Positions 2,325 through 54,090 are shown, counted from the stretch's first letter. The stretch: 64,000 bases of DNA from an uncultured cyanobacterium (GCA_963706595.1 OY970166.1:3584001-3648000); one strand, 5' to 3'. Translations and numbers: made by a program. Notes: a model not told the origin generated them from the letters alone.

Positions 2325-2384
2325 GATAGAAACTGGATTTTGCATGCATGAGCAAAATTGCCGAATCATCTTTGGGTTACAAAT

Positions 2385-3653
2385 ATGACATCATCGGTTA
2401 CTGACAAAACACCAATTCCAGCCAATGAACGGAGACGGCACACAGATCCGCCAAGTTTATGGATTGCGATCGCCATAAGTTCAATTTCCTTGCATTTGCT
2501 GGTTTTTTGGTTTATGCGCTCATCTAATGTCTTTAAACCGTGGTTTCCGGAGCAAAACGAAACAATTGTTCCCATTGAATTTATAGAAGTCTCTCCCCCA
2601 GCAGAATCATTAGATAAATCTGTCTTAGAAGCTGAAACAGTCTCTCCTCAACCGTCTGCATCAGCGCCTGTGCCAGAAACTGCTGCACCAACTACACCTA
2701 GCAATCAGGATACTGAGGCAATAAATTCTGATGCTAGTCTCTTTGGTGAACGTGAAATAGCAGCTTCTCAACCTGAAACCCAAGTCTTTCCTGAGAAAAC
2801 AGTTTCAACACCAACCCCAGCACCAACTCCAACCCCAACTCCAACTCCAACCCCAACTCCAACTCCAACCTCAGCACCAGCACCAACTCCAACTCCAACT
2901 ATTCCAGTGGGTGATCTCCCTTGGAACCGTCGTGAGGAAGTTGTATTAGGACAAGGACAGGCACTACCAACAGATATTCCATCTATTCCGTCAGAACTAC
3001 CAAAACTTTCGGAAGCTGAACAAGGCGAAACGGCACGCACTCTGGATGAGGAAATATCATCTACGCCCACTGGGGAAACTGCTAACACTCCAGATGAGGA
3101 AATATCATCTACACCCACTGGGGAAACTGCTAACACTCCAGATGAGGAAGTATTACCTACACCCACCGGGGAAACTGCTAACACTCCAGATGAGGAAGTA
3201 TTACCTACACCCACCGGGGAAACTGCTAACACTCCCGCCAAAGAAGGAGCGCGGGTTACATTTACAGCAGTAAATAGAACTGAAATAGAACAATTGATAC
3301 AAGATGGTAGATTAAGTCCTGATGGTCTACCCGATGTTCTAGCTGAACACATACACAATGGAAGTAACAGCAAAGATATAGACTTAAGTTATATTCCTGG
3401 CGATTCTGGACTTGAGCCTACACAGTTCCTGGTTAGCTTAGTAATTGATAATAATGGTAATTTTCAAAAAGCTGAAGTTTTAGAAATAGCACCAGCGAGA
3501 CTGCAAAGTAACAAAAGCTTGTATGAGCAGGTTGTCAATGATATTTTCATCAACGATAGGTTTTTACCTGCACACAATAACGATGGCACAAAACCAGAGT
3601 TGAGTAATTTGTTTATGCGGATCAATATTCAGCCTGTTAGCAGCAACGAATAA
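2385..3653 (+). CDS. Membrane-anchored Pro/Thr-rich protein, TonB/TolA-like architecture
   Basis: N-terminal TM with S..SLH motif, (PT)n linker, 16-aa repeats, C-terminal domain resembling TonB_C (VSLVIDNNGN...FLPA...G). ATG 2385 preferred over TTG 2358. Confidence 0.6.
   Translation: MTSSVTDKTPIPANERRRHTDPPSLWIAIAISSISLHLLVFWFMRSSNVFKPWFPEQNETIVPIEFIEVSPPAESLDKSVLEAETVSPQPSASAPVPETAAPTTPSNQDTEAINSDASLFGEREIAASQPETQVFPEKTVSTPTPAPTPTPTPTPTPTPTPTSAPAPTPTPTIPVGDLPWNRREEVVLGQGQALPTDIPSIPSELPKLSEAEQGETARTLDEEISSTPTGETANTPDEEISSTPTGETANTPDEEVLPTPTGETANTPDEEVLPTPTGETANTPAKEGARVTFTAVNRTEIEQLIQDGRLSPDGLPDVLAEHIHNGSNSKDIDLSYIPGDSGLEPTQFLVSLVIDNNGNFQKAEVLEIAPARLQSNKSLYEQVVNDIFINDRFLPAHNNDGTKPELSNLFMRINIQPVSSNE
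3045..3236 (+). repeat. Coding tandem repeat, 4 x 48 bp (DEEISSTPTGETANTP / DEEVLPTPTGETANTP)
   Basis: Four near-identical units read directly from the DNA, in two pairs of variants. Confidence 0.9.
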
Positions 3654-5359: not shown

Positions 5360-5433
5360 GGGAGCAGGGAGAAGCCTTCTCATCCAAAAAGGGTTTCCAG
5401 CCTTAAAAACCGAATTTCACTGTAAATCCTGTT

Positions 5434-5470
5434 CCCCTCCTCGCTTGCGGGGAGGGGCTAGGGGTGGGGT
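5434..5470. repeat. Dispersed hairpin repeat CCCCTCCTCGCTTGCGGGGAGGGG..GGGGTGGGG
   Basis: Reverse-orientation copies near 22924-22959, 33908-33947 and 44203-44242. Confidence 0.8.
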
Positions 5471-5515
5471 CTTATGACACAAACGATAATTTACCGACTT
5501 GTGTGTACACCGTAG

Positions 5516-8500
5516 CTACTGACAAATTCCCCTCTCATCCTCACTCAAATTCGAGTTGTGCTGCAAATAATCATCCAACCAAGCGCAACCCCGCACCAGC
5601 AATTCATCTAAACTCTCCACAGGCCACAACCGCGCTGTCCGGTCATCGGATGCGGTGGCGATGGTTTTGCCGTCCGGGCTGAAACTCACACTATTGATTT
5701 CGCCTTGATGCCCTTTGAATTCTTGTAACAGTTGCCCGTTTAGAGTCCACAACCGCGCTGTCCGGTCAGAGGATGCGGTGGCGATGGTTTTGCCGTCCGG
5801 GCTGAAACTCACACTATAGACTATGCCCTGATGCCCTTTGAATTCTTGTAACAGTTGCCCGTCTAGAGTCCACAACCGCGCTGTCCGGTCAGAGGATGCG
5901 GTGGCGATGGTTTTGCCGTCCGGGCTGAAACTCACACTCCAGACCCAACCCTGATGCCCTTTGAATTCTTGTAACAGTTGCCCGTCTAGAGTCCACAACC
6001 ACGCTGTCTGGTCAGAGGATGCGGTGGCGATGGTTTTGCCGTCCGGGCTGAAACTCACACTAATGATTTCGCCCTGATGCCCTTTGAATTCTTGTAACAG
6101 TTGCCCGTCTAGAGTCCACAACCGCGCTGTCTGGTCAGAGGATGCGGTGGCGATGGTTTTGCCGTCCGGGCTGAAACTCACACTCCAGACCCAGCCCTGA
6201 TGCCCTTTGAATTCTTGTAACAGTTGCCCGTCTAGAGTCCACAACCGCGCTGTCTGGTCAGAGGATGCGGTGGCGATGGTTTTGCCGTCCGGGCTGAAAC
6301 TCACACTCCAGACCCAGCCCTGATGCCCTTTGAATTCTTGTAACAGTTGCCCGTCTAGAGTCCACAACCGCGCTGTCTGGTCAAAGGATGCGGTGGCGAT
6401 GGTTTTGCCGTCCGGGCTGAAACTCACACTATTGATTTCGCCTTGATGCCCTTTGAATTCTTGTAACAGTTGCCCGTTTAGAGTCCACAACCGCGCTGTC
6501 CGGTCAGAGGATGCGGTGGCGATGGTTTTGCCGTCCGGGCTGAAACTCACACTATTGATTTCGCCTTGATGCCCTTTGAATTCTTGTAACAGTTGCCCGT
6601 TTAGAGTCCACAACCGCGCTGTCCGGTCAGAGGATGCGGTGGCGATGGTTTTGCCGTCCGGGCTGAAACTCACACTATTGATTTCGCCTTGATGCCCTTT
6701 GAATTCTTGTAACAGTTGCCCGTTTAGAGTCCACAACCGCGCTGTCCGGTCAGAGGATGCGGTGGCGATGGTTTTGCCGTCCGGGCTGAAACTCACACTA
6801 ATGATTTCGCCCTGATGCCCTTTCAATTCTTGTAACAGTTGCCCGTCTAGAGTCCACAACCGCGCTGTCCCGTCAGAGGATGCGGTGGCGATGGTTTTGC
6901 CGTCCGGGCTGAAACTCACACTAATGATTTCGCCCTGATGCCCTTTCAATTCTTGTAACAGTTGCCCGTCTAGAGTCCACAACCGCGCTGTCCGGTCATC
7001 GGATGCGGTGGCGATGGTTTTGCCGTCCGGGCTGAAACTCACACTCCTGACTATGCCCTGATGCCCTTTGAATTCTTGTAACATTTGCCCGTCTAGAGTC
7101 CACAACCGCGCTGTCCCGTCAGAGGATGCGGTGGCGATGGTTTTGCCGTCCGGGCTGAAACTCACACTCCTGACTATGCCCTGATGCCCTTTGAATTCTT
7201 GTAACAGTTGCCCGTTTAGAGTCCACAACCGCGCTGTCCCGTCAGAGGATGCGGTGGCGATGGTTTTGCCGTCCGGGCTGAAACTCACACTAAAGACCCT
7301 GCCCTGATGCCCATGAAATTGGTTACGTTCTTTAATATCACTCAGAATAGTATGCAACGCATAAATCGGGCTAATAGCTGGGTATTCATCCAGAGGGCGA
7401 TTATCTTTAACTAAAGTTTTCAACTCTTTACCAGTTTTGACTGCTGTTACTAGCCCTTCTAATGGGGTAAATTCAAACTGTCTAATCGCATTAACTCCCG
7501 CCCGTTCTAATTCTGTTCCCTTTTGCGCTTCTTGTTGGGCTGCTTGCGCTAATTGTGCAGCTTGCTTTGCTGTTTGTTGGGCTTCTTGCGCCTGTTTCAG
7601 AGTAATTTCTGCCTGTGCAACTTGAGACTCCGCTTGCTGTTGTTGTTGCTGTGCTTGTTGCGCTTTCTCATCAGCCGTTCTCACTCTCTCCGTAGCCGTT
7701 TTAATTCTGGCTTCCGCTTCGGCATTTTTCTTTTCTAATGCTGCGGCTTGCTGATTTACCTTCTCTAAGTCTGTTTTAGCAGCAGCTAGGTTTTGGGTAG
7801 CTTTGATATTTTCTTTTTGTGCGTCCTTAAACTTTGCTTCTGCGTCCTTACTTTTAATTTCTAAATCTCGCGCTGTTCTTTGTAATTCTGCCTGTTTTCT
7901 TTCCGTCTCTTGCAAATTTTGAGTTGTTCGCCGATAATCACCTTCAGTTTTGGTTAATTTTCGTTCTGCTTGTTGTTGATTTTCATTAGCTTTACTGGCT
8001 GTACCAACTTGAATCACTGCATAAACAGAAGCCATCCCTGAAACTATTAATAAAAACACTGATAAACGAGAACTTATCTTAAACCGTTTCTGCCCTTCCC
8101 TAATCTTTGCTTCAGCTTCCTGGTTAGCAGCAGCTAATATTTTCTTAGCTTCTTGTTCCTGTTTTAACTGCTCTTCAGCTAGAGCTAATTTAGCTAATAA
8201 TTCATTATCCTGTTGTTGTCGCACAAAAGAAACCAAATAATCATGCACCAACTGATACCTATCAGCCGGGGATTCTGGTAATAGCAACACCAAACCAGAT
8301 TGCACAAAAATATCTAATATCAAATCTAATCTATCAGTTTCTGCTGCTAACTTTGCTGTCAACTCAGCCCTAGTTTTCAAAGGACGAGTGCCATTTTCAT
8401 CTGTGAGTAAATATAAAATCAATCTCGCAGCGCGTTCATTTTCTGCCCCACAATCTTTAATAACCGATTCTAAAAATCCTTCAACCAGATTTTCTTTAGT

Positions 8501-10798
8501 CCCAAAATCTTGATACTGTTTTAAAGTTGTAATTTTCTCAGTTTGCAACTGCATCCCCACAAGTTGCAACTCAATTGGGCGTACCTCCCCAATCTTCCCC
8601 GCTAAATCCTGCACTAATTGGTCAATTAAAGCAGCTTCTAAAGAAGATTGATTTCTAGTTTCCTCTGCAATCACACCTTCTAAACCAACGCTACCACTTA
8701 AAGCAGAGTTCAAAGCCTCTCTCCTCGTAGGAGAGAGGTTTGGAGAGAGGTTTTGTCGAGTCAAAGTTTCAATAACAGTCGTAGCATCTTCCGGTGAAAA
8801 ATTACCCAAATAATAGCGAATATTTTTAGCCAGAATATTATTATTAATTACCCCTAAATCAAACAGCCGTTCTAACTCTAATAAATAATGTAAATAATCT
8901 TCTCGTAAAGACAGAATCACCTTCACAAAAGGAATATCTAAACAAATATGTAGGAACTCATAAAAACTGCGCCTATCACCTTGGTCTGGATAAACAAAGA
9001 AAAACTCTTCAAATTGGTCAAAAATTAACACCGTTAACAGATTGCGGTCAGCATTTTTTCGCAACTCTGCCACAATAGCATCTGGAGAATTGAGAGAACT
9101 AGCATTTAACGACTGAATATTTGATTTCAAACACTGTCCCAACATTTCCACCCAATTTGTGTAAACTCGCAACAAAATAGGTAGAACATCACGTCCCTCA
9201 ATTGGTTTTTGTTGCAATGCAGGTATTAAACCACCTTGTAAAATTGAACTTTTACCCACACCTGACTGACCATGAATTACAGTCAATTTATGCTCAGTCC
9301 CGCTAATTCTTTCCCGCAATCGCTTCACATCTTGACTCCGACCAGAAGCGGCTATTTCTTGAGCTACACTATCTGTATTTTCTATTTGTAACTGTGCCGG
9401 ATTTATAGCTTGTTTCTGGGGATTTAAATAAGATGCACCCACAAAAGCCCGAAATCCATATTGATGTTCAATTTGTAATTGTTCTTGCTTGAGATTAAAA
9501 GCTAAACGATATTCATTTTTGTTAAAGTAGAGTAAACGTAATCTTTCTAAAATCAAGATATATAATTGCGGATCATATTGCGGATTACTTGCAGTTTTGG
9601 CAATTTCTAAATGCTCAATTGCGGCTGTAACTTCACCTAAACCCTGATCAGCACAAGCTAAAATAAATTGATATAAACTAAGTTCATAAGGTGCTAAACT
9701 AGAGATATCATTTAATATTTGCAGTGCATTATTCGCCAATTTCCTCGCATCTTGCCAGCGTGACTCTTGTAGCGCTACCTCTGCCAAAAAGCCATGATCT
9801 TGTGCTAATTGTCGGAGAGTGCCATATTCTTCATGTAGTGGCAGAGCTTTTTCAGCTAGGCTTTGTAAATCTGACCATGCTGTTAAATGTCGCAGCGCTT
9901 CACCCAAATGATTAATATATTTAGCGCTTAAATCTAGACGCTGTATTTCCTCAAAAATTTCTAAAGCATCTTGCAGATAATTTCTCGCAGTTTCCCAAGA
10001 TATTTGATTATCTAAGGGATTAATTACAGCTTGCCGAGAATAGAGTAAACCAATATGAATTAAAACTATACCTTGGCGTTCTTTGAAATCATTTATTGTT
10101 CGCCATCTAGTCAAACTTTGCTGATAATGTACTAAAGCCAAATCAAGTTTATCATAAAGATAATCATGAAATCCCAAGACAAATTCCAGACTAGCGGTAA
10201 TAGCAAAATTTAAAACTTCCCTACGCTGTTTTAAATCCTGATGAGCAGATTTTAATTCCTGGCAAATTTGCAGAGTGGGACGCACATCACCAGTAAATAC
10301 TTCACCAGTTGTTTGGCGTAATAAATTAAATAACTCAGGGGTAGGAGTTTCAAACTCAATAATACTAGCCCAATTTTCCAAATCTGCGGCTAACCGAATC
10401 AACTTTTGCAGAGTTTGGTCATTCACCCACAACAAAATAGGGAAAGGAAATTGTTTACTAAATTGCTCCCGCACTCGGTTAGCCGCAGTCAGAACCGTAT
10501 CAATATCTTTAACTGATTCCAACCCAAAAACCATTAAAGCTGGTGGTTGTTCATCTCCCAGTTGTTCTTTAATAGCCGTGTAAAGAGTTTTCACAGATGC
10601 AGGTAAAGTAATTTCGCGAATTTGTACAGGAGATAATTGGTGCAGTCGTTCAACCATACGCTGACGCAAAACCGCATAATTACAGCGCAATAAAATCAGT
10701 GAAAATTCACCTTCAGATAAGGTAATTGCTCTCACCAAACTTTGCAATGATTGCTGATTATCAACTTCTAAATTTTCCGGTTCATGCTGATTACTCAT
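5516..10798 (-). CDS. Large STAND-class NTPase: degenerate P-loop N-terminus, TPRs, STAND ATPase, TM helix, coiled coil, 14 WD40 repeats
   Basis: Walker A HGQSGVGKSS, Walker B LIFDQFEEFF, LSLREDY, YQLVHDYL; hydrophobic LSVFLLIVSGMASVYAVI; 14 x GHQG...SFSPDG...ATAS.D.TARLW. Confidence 0.93.
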   Translation of the reverse strand: MSNQHEPENLEVDNQQSLQSLVRAITLSEGEFSLILLRCNYAVLRQRMVERLHQLSPVQIREITLPASVKTLYTAIKEQLGDEQPPALMVFGLESVKDIDTVLTAANRVREQFSKQFPFPILLWVNDQTLQKLIRLAADLENWASIIEFETPTPELFNLLRQTTGEVFTGDVRPTLQICQELKSAHQDLKQRREVLNFAITASLEFVLGFHDYLYDKLDLALVHYQQSLTRWRTINDFKERQGIVLIHIGLLYSRQAVINPLDNQISWETARNYLQDALEIFEEIQRLDLSAKYINHLGEALRHLTAWSDLQSLAEKALPLHEEYGTLRQLAQDHGFLAEVALQESRWQDARKLANNALQILNDISSLAPYELSLYQFILACADQGLGEVTAAIEHLEIAKTASNPQYDPQLYILILERLRLLYFNKNEYRLAFNLKQEQLQIEHQYGFRAFVGASYLNPQKQAINPAQLQIENTDSVAQEIAASGRSQDVKRLRERISGTEHKLTVIHGQSGVGKSSILQGGLIPALQQKPIEGRDVLPILLRVYTNWVEMLGQCLKSNIQSLNASSLNSPDAIVAELRKNADRNLLTVLIFDQFEEFFFVYPDQGDRRSFYEFLHICLDIPFVKVILSLREDYLHYLLELERLFDLGVINNNILAKNIRYYLGNFSPEDATTVIETLTRQNLSPNLSPTRREALNSALSGSVGLEGVIAEETRNQSSLEAALIDQLVQDLAGKIGEVRPIELQLVGMQLQTEKITTLKQYQDFGTKENLVEGFLESVIKDCGAENERAARLILYLLTDENGTRPLKTRAELTAKLAAETDRLDLILDIFVQSGLVLLLPESPADRYQLVHDYLVSFVRQQQDNELLAKLALAEEQLKQEQEAKKILAAANQEAEAKIREGQKRFKISSRLSVFLLIVSGMASVYAVIQVGTASKANENQQQAERKLTKTEGDYRRTTQNLQETERKQAELQRTARDLEIKSKDAEAKFKDAQKENIKATQNLAAAKTDLEKVNQQAAALEKKNAEAEARIKTATERVRTADEKAQQAQQQQQQAESQVAQAEITLKQAQEAQQTAKQAAQLAQAAQQEAQKGTELERAGVNAIRQFEFTPLEGLVTAVKTGKELKTLVKDNRPLDEYPAISPIYALHTILSDIKERNQFHGHQGRVFSVSFSPDGKTIATASSDGTARLWTLNGQLLQEFKGHQGIVRSVSFSPDGKTIATASSDGTARLWTLDGQMLQEFKGHQGIVRSVSFSPDGKTIATASDDRTARLWTLDGQLLQELKGHQGEIISVSFSPDGKTIATASSDGTARLWTLDGQLLQELKGHQGEIISVSFSPDGKTIATASSDRTARLWTLNGQLLQEFKGHQGEINSVSFSPDGKTIATASSDRTARLWTLNGQLLQEFKGHQGEINSVSFSPDGKTIATASSDRTARLWTLNGQLLQEFKGHQGEINSVSFSPDGKTIATASFDQTARLWTLDGQLLQEFKGHQGWVWSVSFSPDGKTIATASSDQTARLWTLDGQLLQEFKGHQGWVWSVSFSPDGKTIATASSDQTARLWTLDGQLLQEFKGHQGEIISVSFSPDGKTIATASSDQTAWLWTLDGQLLQEFKGHQGWVWSVSFSPDGKTIATASSDRTARLWTLDGQLLQEFKGHQGIVYSVSFSPDGKTIATASSDRTARLWTLNGQLLQEFKGHQGEINSVSFSPDGKTIATASDDRTARLWPVESLDELLVRGCAWLDDYLQHNSNLSEDERGICQ
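5620..7318 (-). repeat. Array of 14 near-identical 123-bp WD40-coding repeats
   Basis: 41-aa period; DNA is nearly invariant apart from a few codon positions. Confidence 0.97.
8716..8750. repeat. Palindromic dispersed repeat inside the STAND-WD40 gene
   Basis: CCTCTCTCCT-CGT-AGGAGAGAGG hairpin followed by TTTGGAGAGAGG, translated as NLSPNLSPTRREA. Confidence 0.7.
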
Positions 10799-12252: not shown

Positions 12253-13122
12253 ATGACCAAACCCGCAGATGTTAGCACCAAAAAGTTAATTAGCCTCGCA
12301 CCCGACAACTGGGTAAAATGGGTGACACAAATTCCTGATGTCACAGCAACCGAAATACTAAATTCAGAATTTCAATGGATAAGTAGAGAAAGTGATGTTT
12401 TAATTCGCGTTGCCAGTCCTCAAGTTGGAGAATTTCTCGTTCTCAATGAATTACAATTACGCTATCAGCCACAAATGCCTCGTCGAATGCGTGCTTATGT
12501 CGGACTTGCAGAAGAAAAATATAATTTACCGATCTACCCCGTATTAATTAATATTCTCAAAGTCAGTAACGCGCAAATACCATCAACGTACACATCAAAT
12601 ATTGCAGGGTTGCAAGCACGCCAAGATTACCGCGTGATTAATTTATGGGAAGTAGATGTAAATATTGCTTTTCAACAACCATTACCGTCATTACTGCCAT
12701 TTGTTCCTATACTCAAAGGCGGTGAAAACGAATCTACAATTAGAGAAGCATTACAAGTTTTGCGTGCAGATGAGCAATTAAACCAACTGGAAACAGTGTT
12801 AGCTTTTTTTGCAACCTTTGTACTAGACAGCGCCTTAGTTCAAGAAATCATGAGGTGGGATATGGCTGTATTACACGAATCGCCTTGGTATCAAGAAATT
12901 TTACGCGAGGGTGAAAAACGCGGCGAGAAACGGGGTGAAGAACGCGGCGAGGGACGTGGATTGAAAAATGGTATTGAGTTAGCGTTAGAGATTAAATTTG
13001 GCACTCCTGGCTTGGAATTAATGCCAATTATCTCGCAAATCCATGATTTACAACAATTAAAGGCAGTTCAACAGGCGATCAAAACGTCAAATACAGTTGA
13101 GGAATTAAAACAAGTTTTTTGA
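12253..13122 (+). CDS. Rpn family recombination-promoting nuclease / putative transposase
   Basis: RESDVL...ELQ PD-(D/E)xK-like core, MPRRMRAY, ESPWYQEI followed by (GEKR)n repeats. Confidence 0.85.
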   Translation: MTKPADVSTKKLISLAPDNWVKWVTQIPDVTATEILNSEFQWISRESDVLIRVASPQVGEFLVLNELQLRYQPQMPRRMRAYVGLAEEKYNLPIYPVLINILKVSNAQIPSTYTSNIAGLQARQDYRVINLWEVDVNIAFQQPLPSLLPFVPILKGGENESTIREALQVLRADEQLNQLETVLAFFATFVLDSALVQEIMRWDMAVLHESPWYQEILREGEKRGEKRGEERGEGRGLKNGIELALEIKFGTPGLELMPIISQIHDLQQLKAVQQAIKTSNTVEELKQVF

Positions 13123-13258: not shown

Positions 13259-14851
13259 CTATCCATTACCCACATCTTTCTTAACATGACTGTAAGCTAG
13301 ACTGTGTAGGGATGATAGAAGTTTCTAAGTCAGCGCGATCGCCTGTGGAGAGGGTTTGCCGATGTTTAAGCAGAAACATCAAGTGGAGAAGCGGGATGGA
13401 GAAGTTTCCAGGTAGCGGCGATATCGTGTAATCGCCGTAGACCCCGCCAAATAGTTTTAACTCCCGGCTCACCATCTCCATTGCGAGCCAGAAAGCCGCC
13501 GAGAGTGGCAATCATTCGCACGGCTTCTCGTAAAGACGGAGGTTTTTTTGGTGGTATGGGATTCTTGTTGACAGTGGCACATAAAGATTGCCATTCATCA
13601 GTTTCTAAAACGGTATTAGAGGGTAAATCAGGGTGAACTCGTGAGGAGTAAGTTAGCCATAACAAACGCCAAGCGACAACAGTATAAGTGGCTAGTGCCA
13701 TATTGATGCGGTCAGCAGTGGACAATTGTAATTGCTCAATTCTACACCCACTTTTTAAAGTGTAATGATAGCGTTCTATCAACCAACGATAAGTGTACCA
13801 TTGCACACAACGTGCGGCATCCTGTAAGTTATGAATCTCAAGGCTGGTGAGCAATAACCAACTAATAGGATTGATTCCGGGTGGTGAATGATCTTCTGAT
13901 GCCAGAATTACTTGTAACTTTACAGGTTTTAGCTGTGAACGCCCGATATGATGTGATGGGACTTGGATATCAACACTAGTGAATCGAATTGTGAGTATCG
14001 CTTTTCTAGCACTATGTTCTGGACTACGTTTGACCTCTGCTGTCAGTGTTCCATGGGGTTCAATTTGGCGGATTGCTTGATGTAAATACTTGGCACAGTG
14101 GTCAACTTTGCGGTTGTGAGTCCCACGGATTAACAAATGGGAATTTTCTGAACGTTTGAGATTAAATAGGTCAAATATATCTGCTTCTGAGTCCCCTATT
14201 GTCACTACTTGAATCTCTGATGGGACAGAATTTTGTGTCACATCTAATCCATCTAACCAGCGCTGACTTTCTTTTAAAAGTGTTTCCCTTTGACGACGTT
14301 TTTTCGCTATGCCCAAATTTTCGGGTGGTCTAGCCCATACCTGCTGTTCCAGAATTCCTAACGGCACTCCATTACTTGTAGCTGCAAATGTTGAATGTAC
14401 TTTCAATCCTGATGATTGACGATGGTCAAGATAACCCACTCCTTTCGTTTTGGGGTGGTCTGTTAAATCTATGTTGGTTGTGTCTTGAATCGCTAAGACT
14501 ATTTGATGTTCTTTGATTCTTTCGATTGTGCTGTCTATATGCCCTTGACGAATTTCACTGGCGGGAAAATATGGTGATTTCCAAAAGTTATATACTGCTT
14601 TGGTTGCTGCCATATTTCCACTTGCTTGTGGTACGCTACAATCTGGCTGTGCGGCTAAGTCCTCTACTATCTTGATTAACCGCTTGTTTCGACGAACGTC
14701 TCCTAGGTCTACCCCAGACAGTTCCTTGGCTGCCCACTTTTCCATGATTCCATTACCCGATTCTGTTCTCTCCACACTATACTTAGCAAGCTTTTTCCGC
14801 TTATGTTAAGTATCTTGTTTGATTGTTAAGAAAGATGCGGGTAATGGATAG
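13259..14851 (-). mobile_element. Complete IS4-family (IS50/Tn5-like) insertion sequence, 1593 bp
   Basis: 28-bp TIRs CTATCCATTACCC(A/G)CATCTTTCTTAACA with 1 mismatch; 9-bp target duplication TTACTAAGG at 13250-13258 and 14852-14860. Confidence 0.96.
13366..14775 (-). CDS. IS4-family DDE transposase
   Basis: WA..EL..DLGD.RR.KRL N-terminus, IQDTT, GDSEAD, YREK motif YRWLIERYHYTLKSG, LGGFL.R..DGEPG..TIWRG dimerisation tail. Confidence 0.96.
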   Translation of the reverse strand: MERTESGNGIMEKWAAKELSGVDLGDVRRNKRLIKIVEDLAAQPDCSVPQASGNMAATKAVYNFWKSPYFPASEIRQGHIDSTIERIKEHQIVLAIQDTTNIDLTDHPKTKGVGYLDHRQSSGLKVHSTFAATSNGVPLGILEQQVWARPPENLGIAKKRRQRETLLKESQRWLDGLDVTQNSVPSEIQVVTIGDSEADIFDLFNLKRSENSHLLIRGTHNRKVDHCAKYLHQAIRQIEPHGTLTAEVKRSPEHSARKAILTIRFTSVDIQVPSHHIGRSQLKPVKLQVILASEDHSPPGINPISWLLLTSLEIHNLQDAARCVQWYTYRWLIERYHYTLKSGCRIEQLQLSTADRINMALATYTVVAWRLLWLTYSSRVHPDLPSNTVLETDEWQSLCATVNKNPIPPKKPPSLREAVRMIATLGGFLARNGDGEPGVKTIWRGLRRLHDIAATWKLLHPASPLDVSA

Positions 14852-53901: not shown

Positions 53902-54090
53902 GTAGAGACGCGATTTATCGCGTCTTTACCAAAGATATCGCGTCTTTACCAAAGATATCGCGTCTTTACCAAAGATATCGCGTCTTTACCAAAGATATCG
54001 CGTCTTTACCAAAGATATCGCGTCTTTACCAAAGATATCGCGTCTTTACCAAAGATATCGCGTCTTTACCCAAGATATCGCGTCTTTACA
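53902..54090. repeat. Tandem array of 20-bp unit ATCGCGTCTTTACCAAAGAT (8 full copies plus a partial), starting from a palindrome
   Basis: Units start at 53917 with 20-bp period and no spacers; preceded by AGACGCGAT-TT-ATCGCGTCT. Confidence 0.95.

Follow-up and report, generated by a model that had tools for sequence, protein, structure and literature searches.

Arrays of near-identical WD40 blades joined to STAND NTPases have been described in fungi and in cyanobacteria, and the array examined here, at the 3' end of an nSTAND1 receptor-like gene, lies in 64,000 nucleotides of DNA from an uncultured cyanobacterium (OY970166.1:3584001-3648000 of GCA_963706595.1; the whole stretch is hereafter called the window). 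The host genome is a single contig of 5.57 Mb with 41% GC, judged to belong to a filamentous heterocystous cyanobacterium, and the closest named locus is that of a Nodularia metagenome-assembled genome (L053), with a STAND region 94% identical. The analysis indicates that the array is probably the ligand-sensing end of an NLR-like STAND receptor, in which recombination likely keeps the blades alike and selection likely favours variety at four predicted binding codons.

The NWD/HNWD genes of Podospora anserina (het-d and het-e, plus het-r; PMC1805685, PMC2873952) combine a STAND NTPase with a homogenised WD40 array, as does the window gene. Paoletti et al. reported selection at codons 7, 9, 25 and 27 of the Podospora repeat (PMC1805685), in the same two loops as codons 5, 7, 23 and 25 of the window unit, and the creation of new units by rearrangement has been shown there directly (Chevanne 2010, PMC2873952). 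Both systems have four selected codons in two pairs with the same spacing, the match being one of spacing, and selection in the window array being assessed by a counting method only. The likeness to het-e and het-d drawn in a preliminary description of the window is supported in these respects, codon pattern and spacing (PMC1805685). However, the Podospora proteins carry NACHT and HET domains, whereas the window protein has an nSTAND1 module and no effector (its NACHT match of 23.1 bits is below the cut-off, and Pfam gave no HET match). Repeats are exchanged between loci in Podospora, while in the host genome each array has its own backbone and no exchange between loci was seen. The Podospora ligand, HET-C, is known, and a membrane helix is not described for NWD/HNWD in the accessible text.

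Among solved structures the best sequence match is the WRAP propeller encoded by Npun_R6612 from Nostoc punctiforme PCC 73102 (2YMU; Afanasieva 2019, PMC6805158; Pereira and Lupas 2022, PMC9218822), which aligns with the window array without gaps over 571 residues. Each has 14 near-identical 41-residue blades that hardly differ at silent sites and lie C-terminal to a STAND ATPase, and in each case the STAND gene is preceded by a gene for another ATPase; the modelled window propeller matches WRAP with a TM-score of 0.96, and the main variable site of WRAP (W/R) aligns with window codon 7. The two are nevertheless only about 55% identical, with different blade backbones, and the window array has far more alleles and four variable sites. 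WRAP, with its STAND-TIR operon, was described as a very recent amplification, and a role in innate immunity was proposed (PMC9218822, PMC6805158); the terms 'recombination' and 'gene conversion' do not occur in the main text of PMC9218822. These variable positions may also be visible in its Fig. 2 and Fig. S3.

The window array is also like the highly repetitive (HR) WD40 proteins that Hu et al. (2017, PMC5587647) surveyed in prokaryotes and fungi, a cyanobacteria-enriched group with high internal identity and diversity at top-face hotspots; that survey was conducted at the protein level and speaks of young duplications, and the accessible main text lacks the terms 'recombination', 'concerted' and 'positive selection'. 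The nSTAND1 NTPases that Kaur et al. (2021, PMC8195603) assigned to the counter-invader systems of multicellular bacteria share with the window protein PF20703, a C-terminal repeat sensor and a filamentous host, but no EAD, TIR, caspase or other effector was found in the window gene, which is paired with a gene for an ATPase of 433 amino acids (aa). Dyrka et al. speculated that bacterial repeats might evolve like fungal NLR repeats (bioRxiv 2020.01.06.895854). Highly repetitive bacterial WD40 arrays with variable hotspots are already published, and the pattern itself is not new; no paper testing recombination, selection or GC bias in cyanobacterial WD40 arrays was found by title or the start of the abstract in a search that left subscription literature mostly outside.

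A homogenised array with four hypervariable codons

Tandem Repeats Finder (TRF) reported one array (Table 1) with a period of 123 bp, 13.7 copies, 95% matches and no indels, in frame with the open reading frame (ORF) that contains it. Fourteen GHQG anchors are spaced exactly 41 residues apart, and unit 14 continues as repeat only through codon 30 before the tail begins (codons are numbered from the G of GHQG). The preliminary description had listed 14 near-identical 123-bp WD40 units, and the TRF result and the anchors bear this out; its triplets after GHQG (RVF, IVR, IVR, EII, EII, EIN, EIN, EIN, WVW, WVW, EII, WVW, IVY, EIN) and its S-x-D-x variants (SSDG, SDDR, SSDR, SFDQ and SSDQ) match the translation exactly. 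The near-identity that it claimed for synonymous sites also holds, since the fourfold-degenerate sites of codons 1-30, minus codons 4-7, 23 and 25, show no differences in 1079 pairwise comparisons.

Over codons 1-30 the mean identity between units is 93% at the DNA level, and 11 of units 1-13 are distinct. Seventeen of the 123 columns vary among units 1-13, ten of them within the 12 columns of codons 5, 7, 23 and 25 (hypergeometric p 7.6e-9), and two only, in codons 3 and 4, are purely synonymous. Lesser variation was found at codons 6 (V/I), 33 (N/D) and 40 (F/L), with single changes at codons 28 and 36. The tetrad residues H2, S22, D24 and W30 are invariant, while codons 5, 7 and 23 vary; high repeat identity, diversity at the hotspots R1-2, R1 and D-1, and intact DHSW tetrads are the marks by which HR WD40 proteins are recognised. 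Non-synonymous difference per site (pN) is 0.478 at codons 5, 7, 23 and 25 and 0.019 at the other 37 codons, where the synonymous value (pS) is 0.021, these being uncorrected, non-independent pairwise counts rather than estimates from a maximum-likelihood codon model. The preliminary description had taken these sites to be diversified, and by the counting method pN is indeed far above pS there.

WD40 blade loop positions tolerate change, and the four codons might be unconstrained surface positions that drift and have no role in recognition. Neutral change, however, cannot outpace the silent rate, and pN at the four codons is far above pS in the same units. Moreover, the bottom-face loop residues P13-D14-G15-K16, which are equally exposed, hardly vary (pN only 0.015-0.06), and the residues used at the variable sites are rich in W, Y, R, L and N. 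Drift of this kind is considered very improbable.

The variable codons on the predicted propeller

A model of blades 8-14 built on a 39-row alignment reached a pLDDT of 97.7 and a pTM of 0.92, and in a fold search it matched WRAP-derived structures and 2YMU with TM-scores of 0.93-0.98; the 14 blades are predicted to fold as two 7-bladed propellers. A single-sequence fold of the 14-blade domain was unusable (pLDDT 42). According to the strand limits of the model, the d-a loop contains codon 5 and the b-c loop codons 23 and 25, while strand a starts with codon 7. Wu et al. (PMC3419727) have a scheme in which codons 5, 7, 23 and 25 would be R1-2, R1, D-1 and D+1, respectively. In that scheme the d-a and b-c loops form the top face and R1-2, R1 and D-1 are binding hotspots (PMC3419727). 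The location of the variable sites on the top, as claimed in the preliminary description, is supported by this combination of model and hotspot scheme, with the direction of the four side chains taken from the rule in PMC3419727. The preliminary description further proposed that the blade variants may give new binding specificities.

Recurrence of the pattern in orthologous arrays

Orthologues were drawn from 41 genomes and two contig collections. The pooled set comprised 26 array segments from 25 loci in related genomes, each with at least seven units free of gaps and an internal DNA identity of roughly 85% or higher; an array with a frameshift was counted as two segments, and shorter or more diverged arrays, the duplicate record L108, L059 and a frameshifted paralogue were left out. 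Relative to background pS, pooled pN was 4.2, 4.3, 4.5 and 2.3 at codons 5, 7, 23 and 25 respectively, 2.1 at codon 4, and at most 0.71 elsewhere. Codon 23 ranked among the top four codons in all 26 segments, codon 5 in 25 and codon 7 in 24, and the ordered strings of hotspot residues differ in 26 of 26 segments. Unit number ranges from 2 to 14 across species, counts that short-read collapse may have lowered, and the first variable island varies in length as well as sequence: units 9, 11 and 13 of L037 (G012) carry two-residue insertions in it, and one-residue deletions occur at the same place in other arrays.

Fourteen of 16 WD40 ORFs in the host genome had enough units to be scored. Four of these arrays are homogenised; no two have a backbone in common, but all vary at the same positions. 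A second STAND-like gene (G000:C1:4242735-4246016, minus strand) encodes a helix, a coiled coil and seven homogenised 126-bp WD40 units (92% identity); the backbone is peculiar to it, but its variable sites are the same and it ends in a similar tail with two cysteines. Further homogenised arrays occur at G000:C1:2961792-2966573 (minus strand, 129-bp units) and 5081379-5083514 (plus strand, 126-bp units). The former array is followed in the protein by a P-loop NTPase, KAP-like as judged by eye, and about 2 kb separate this array from a 557-aa reverse transcriptase frame, one of a pair that score identically.

Near-identity or unit order might reflect an assembly artefact, given that no source reads were found (the best run shared 0.12 of sampled words) and that orthologous arrays often end at contig edges or N gaps. 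The window array nevertheless belongs to a single-contig genome, with the frame intact over the usual 14 blades, and its distinct units differ in the same codons as orthologous arrays. In four unrelated runs, representing related organisms, contigs break off at the codon 4-7 island, where their alleles are different ones; the loose contig ends, when translated, include WVW and IVY among several alleles, and two independent runs contain a joint that steps back by 123 bases. These contigs come from relatives differing at about 7-11 per 100 letters in the unique part, and no copy number can be read from them, but their breakage at an island with varied alleles indicates that such arrays are real and varied in relatives. 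An artefact is scarcely credible on this evidence.

Probable recombination within the array

The best tree found for the units requires 32 steps against a minimum of 21, and point mutation on a duplication tree fits the array badly. Site pairs are incompatible in 8 of 29 cases within 15 bases and in 29 of 37 cases further apart, and for column pairs outside the hot codons in 3 of 6 cases (p 0.02 in a simple null simulation). Adjacent units are more similar than expected by chance (p 0.019), as unequal crossover would predict, and the identity of a 170-bp tract in units 13-14 to tracts elsewhere in the array (Table 1) is as conversion or a multi-unit event would predict. The proposal in the preliminary description that recombination shuffles the blades is supported by the incompatible site pairs and the long-range identical tracts. 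Duplication of a whole 7-blade propeller was considered and rejected, since neither the window (p 0.39) nor any of 14 other arrays shows more lag-7 similarity than chance would give. Steering of mutation by a hairpin within the unit was likewise rejected (z-scores of -0.28, 0.57 and -0.15).

Other WD40 loci had been suggested as donors. None serves: each homogenised array has its own backbone, and neither these loci nor the rest of the host genome yielded a donor, the best outside match being 57 of 123 bases at 82% in another WD40 gene. Since the unit has no near copy outside the array, exchange is confined to the locus. The same search bears on a diversity-generating retroelement (DGR) or another templated hypermutator rewriting the codons. 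Cyanobacteria have DGRs, which elsewhere target nSTAND1 proteins (PMC10907252), and the host genome gave five reverse transcriptase matches. However, no template-like copy of the unit exists beyond the match just described, nine invariant codons end in a silent A, and no A-specific repeat pair lies beside the three reverse transcriptase loci, of the five, that were examined; this explanation is already largely refuted.

Probable old alleles and sharing with Nostoc

In the published reading of WRAP, such arrays arise by recent amplification from one blade, followed by point mutation and top-face selection with no continuing exchange. The absence of fourfold differences in the scaffold is as this would predict. 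In addition, the window unit departs from the Nostoc consensus by four fixed silent differences, and Pereira and Lupas took such marks as evidence of independent amplification (PMC9218822); silent divergence between the window and Nostoc is lower in the unit (4/16) than in the STAND domain (0.36-0.55), but involves too few sites to carry a claim alone. Conversely, 7 of 9 bases distinguish the EIN from the WVW allele against 0 differences at silent scaffold sites, incompatibility grows with distance, and long-range tracts are identical. Repeated re-amplification from chimeric blades may have taken place, but would be unequal crossover under another name.

When the variable codons are masked, every one of 13 window units lies closest to its own array, and the units have lineage-specific silent bases in common. 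The EIN patch itself, however, recurs almost unchanged in three Nostoc-type arrays (L055, L079 and L109; Table 1), whereas it differs from the window WVW patch at 8 or 9 of 15 bases. Codon 3 is CAA in all four window EIN units, as almost throughout the Nostoc arrays, and CAG in the ten others. A set of 243 Nostocales units, taken from 22 arrays, shows an association between E5 and I6 (5/18 against 8/225; Fisher p 0.001, the units not being independent). As judged from sequence, these data favour an old allele that was retained or imported over fresh amplification of a single blade, and the sharing with Nostoc argues, together with the raised silent GC described below, against recent amplification. 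The EIN argument rests on one allele and one silent base, and convergence is therefore not impossible. Taken together, recent amplification without continuing exchange is regarded as improbable.

Across 13 Nostoc-type arrays, fourfold sites differ by 5% in the unit consensus and by 23% in the STAND domain; Nostoc species with that 23% difference between their STAND domains have identical masked blades, and in 12 of the 13 arrays units differ by 10% between species and by 9.5% within arrays. Blades of Anabaena azotica (L068) group with the window blades (support 100/98), while its STAND domain is no closer than that of Nostoc (0.48 fourfold difference); transfer of the array is a possible explanation.

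Raised GC at silent sites

The GC content of third codon positions is 0.62 in the array and 0.27 in the rest of the gene, and fourfold sites have G or C in 13 of 17 cases in the array against 0.33 in the rest of the gene. Consensus fourfold GC in the four homogenised arrays of the host genome is 13/17, 14/20, 11/22 and 14/23, against backgrounds of 0.25-0.40 (p 0.0003, 0.006, 0.01 and 0.035, respectively). Among the WD40 arrays of the host genome, fourfold GC is 0.54-0.82 in the four homogenised and 0.21-0.49 in the ten diverged arrays, and over 41 homologous array segments the GC excess increases with homogeneity (rho 0.65, related segments not being independent). Silent variants within 16 Nostoc arrays lie predominantly towards AT (88, against 3 towards GC), at a mean frequency of about 0.17. 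GC-biased conversion, the spread of a GC-rich blade by transfer, or selection at silent sites could each produce the rise.

Architecture of the receptor-like protein and its putative partner

The 1760-aa protein comprises, in order, an unnamed N-terminal domain, a TPR region, the nSTAND1 NTPase, a hydrophobic helix, a coiled-coil stalk, 14 WD40 blades and a tail (Table 1). No NCBIfam or PDB match was obtained for the N-terminal domain, and searches of PDB and Atlas gave it no name; that it might be a dead copy of the partner ATPase was unsupported (hhalign probability 0.5%).

Table 1. Features of the receptor locus (window coordinates)
Feature	Position	Strand	Remarks
ORF, 1760 aa	5516..10798	-	nSTAND1 NTPase receptor-like gene, WD40 array at 3' end
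N-terminal domain, no named family (about aa 1-200)	10199..10798	-	Conserved; only unnamed Atlas clusters matched
TPR-like region (aa 296-447)	9458..9913	-	Weak Pfam TPR_12 and TPR_MalT matches, below cut-off
nSTAND1 NTPase module (about aa 486-880)	8159..9343	-	PF20703, 113.7 bits (cut-off 27.1); intact Walker A at aa 510
Hydrophobic helix (aa 914-932), predicted single membrane span	8003..8059	-	Mean Kyte-Doolittle 2.04, basic residues on N-terminal side; from hydropathy only
Predicted coiled-coil stalk, Gln/Ala/Lys-rich (about aa 933-1100)	7499..8002	-	From sequence
WD40 array, 13.7 x 123 bp (aa 1163-1725)	5624..7312	-	Unit i begins at 7312-123(i-1); predicted two 7-bladed propellers
First hypervariable island, codons 5-7 of unit 1	7292..7300	-	d-a loop and start of strand a; repeats each 123 bp
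Second hypervariable island, codons 23-25 of unit 1	7238..7246	-	b-c loop, flanks invariant tetrad Asp24; repeats each 123 bp
EIN allele patch, codons 3-7 of unit 6 (also units 7, 8 and 14)	6677..6691	-	14/15 bases identical to EIN patch in three Nostoc-type arrays, including silent A of codon 3
170-bp tract, units 13-14	5648..5817	-	Same sequence in units 6-7 (6509-6678) and at lags 6 and 8
C-terminal tail, two conserved cysteines (C1738, C1759)	5516..5623	-	Follows codon 30 of unit 14
P-loop ATPase, 433 aa	10873..12174	-	74 bp upstream of STAND gene; Walker A at residue 63

The helix between STAND domain and blades is present in 33 of 41 orthologue rows, with a mean hydropathy of 1.70-2.39, and the full-length linker between STAND and WD40 regions measures 117-352 aa across orthologues. 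If the helix spans the membrane, as its hydropathy would suggest, the propellers of the host strain would lie outside the cytoplasm and the family would consist of anchored and soluble forms. In-frame loss of the helix together with much of the stalk was seen in L059, L060, L064, L066, L079, L070, L071 and L072, and in those of Nostoc type two similar Ala-Glu-Glu-Lys motifs meet at the junction, an arrangement suggestive of a deletion between short repeats. The tail cysteines were considered as a sign of a periplasmic disulfide, a weak one because they are kept in orthologues that lack the helix.

The 433-aa ATPase adjoins the STAND gene in 48 of the 53 loci that have the N-terminal domain (55 examined), and two of the five loci without an adjacent ATPase have less than 300 bases of upstream sequence. 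No TIR or caspase domain was found in it, and no named system was matched in the libraries searched; the window pair is therefore WRAP-like, yet is not assigned to the TIR-STAND operon. The WRAP papers cite Dunin-Horkawicz 2014 on WRAP and its operon.

Turnover of the locus and its neighbourhood

The orthologue is present in 4 of 10 congeners. In G002 the gene is cut after one blade by an insertion that, in our own reading, resembles a resolvase and TnpB element; G009 retains two blades, the G008 copy runs into a contig edge, and that of G006 is interrupted by gaps and lacks the 5' part. A broken piece of the ATPase remains in G010, only about 50 bases separate the flanking genes in G004, and in G003 a lipoxygenase gene (L184:662-2308) occupies the site of the ATPase-STAND pair. 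The flanking genes of G001 and G005 are 28-30 kb apart, and the ORFs between them correspond in size, though in inverted order, to the downstream genes of the window (a comparison of size only). This pattern of loss fits a gene under intermittent selection, with the caveat that such arrays assemble badly. In G002 the truncated gene end and insertion element occur twice (L031:8562-10440 and L032:7200-9900, one beside an N gap), probably by scaffolding duplication or element-mediated rearrangement.

The same genetics could serve kin or self recognition, or developmental signalling between filaments, instead of defence. No effector domain and no defence neighbours were found, the sensor is predicted to be extracytoplasmic, and fungal het-e acts in allorecognition (PMC1805685). 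Conversely, the frequent loss, truncation and insertion-sequence disruption in congeners fit a conflict gene, and those bacterial STAND proteins that have been characterised sense phage proteins (PMC12803255). Recognition between filaments in place of defence seems unlikely, though it is to be taken seriously.

Several other features of the window were recorded. Immediately after the stop codon (5400-5516) lies a dispersed repeat of about 117 bp, of the appearance of a miniature inverted-repeat transposable element, with 188 blastn matches in the host genome (22 of at least 90 bases) and many in all 10 congeners. A 289-aa ORF at 12253-13122 (plus strand), without a Pfam or NCBIfam match, presumably resembles Rpn-type putative transposases, and a Tn5/IS4-type transposase at 13366-14775 (minus strand) is absent from G009 at that site. 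Elsewhere, 2358-3653 (plus strand) encodes a membrane-anchored protein with a Pro-Thr run and four 48-bp repeats (3038-3235) but no Pfam match, and a 20-bp unit is present in 8.7 nearly perfect copies between two ORFs at 53916-54089.

Discussion

In the mechanism proposed, unequal crossover would duplicate and delete adjacent units, while short-tract gene conversion, probably biased towards G+C, would remove new mutations from scaffold codons and move the codon 3-7 and codon 23-25 islands independently among blades. Old island alleles would survive because selection on the binding surface prevents any single one from sweeping. A foreign protein, from a phage, a predator or a rival filament, might bind the propeller tops and switch nSTAND1 to an ATP-bound oligomer; as the 1760-aa protein has no recognisable effector, the signal is proposed to pass via the N-terminal domain to the co-encoded 433-aa ATPase. 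In the host strain the propellers would stand on the coiled-coil stalk beyond a single membrane helix, and hence outside the cytoplasm. Confidence is higher for the genetics than for the account as a whole, and lower for the immune role; ligand, effector and immune function are matters that we infer.

A number of results weigh against this account. The pN/pS contrast is derived from non-independent pairwise counts, and conversion itself lowers pS. Silent variants from A or T to G or C are not higher in frequency than those in the opposite direction (3 against 88 events, p 0.50, a test without power), and Microcoleus arrays are homogenised with little or no rise in GC (differences -0.18 to +0.13). 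Nostoc blades do not group by species, and homogenisation is therefore not species-specific there. The helix is absent, in frame, from 8 of 41 orthologue rows (five Nostoc-type, three Microcoleus), so an extracytoplasmic sensor is not constant in the family. Finally, PADLOC and NCBIfam gave no meaningful defence match, and the context is not that of a defence island, the neighbourhood being housekeeping-like (RadC, thrC).

A wider and more tentative reading, which is thought rather doubtful at present, is that the 'recently amplified' propellers of cyanobacteria are old arrays kept uniform by GC-biased gene conversion, and that heterocystous cyanobacteria share a cross-species pool of blade alleles, with short patches moved between genomes. 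It is suggested by the EIN patch and its linked silent base being shared, the identity of masked Nostoc blades, the grouping of L068 and the raised silent GC of four arrays. If it were true, the locus would represent DGR-free, recombination-based diversification of a membrane-anchored, NLR-like sensor facing the periplasm.

What is added to the published pattern is DNA-level evidence, in 25 loci, for ongoing recombination and retention of old alleles, as opposed to amplification from one blade. The array family offers a test case for recent amplification against concerted evolution, and, as small arrays in AT-rich genomes, it makes GC-biased conversion testable against matched diverged arrays of the same genome. 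Should the receptor reading prove true, the four codons would constitute a binding code, and screening for the ligand would become a bounded experiment.

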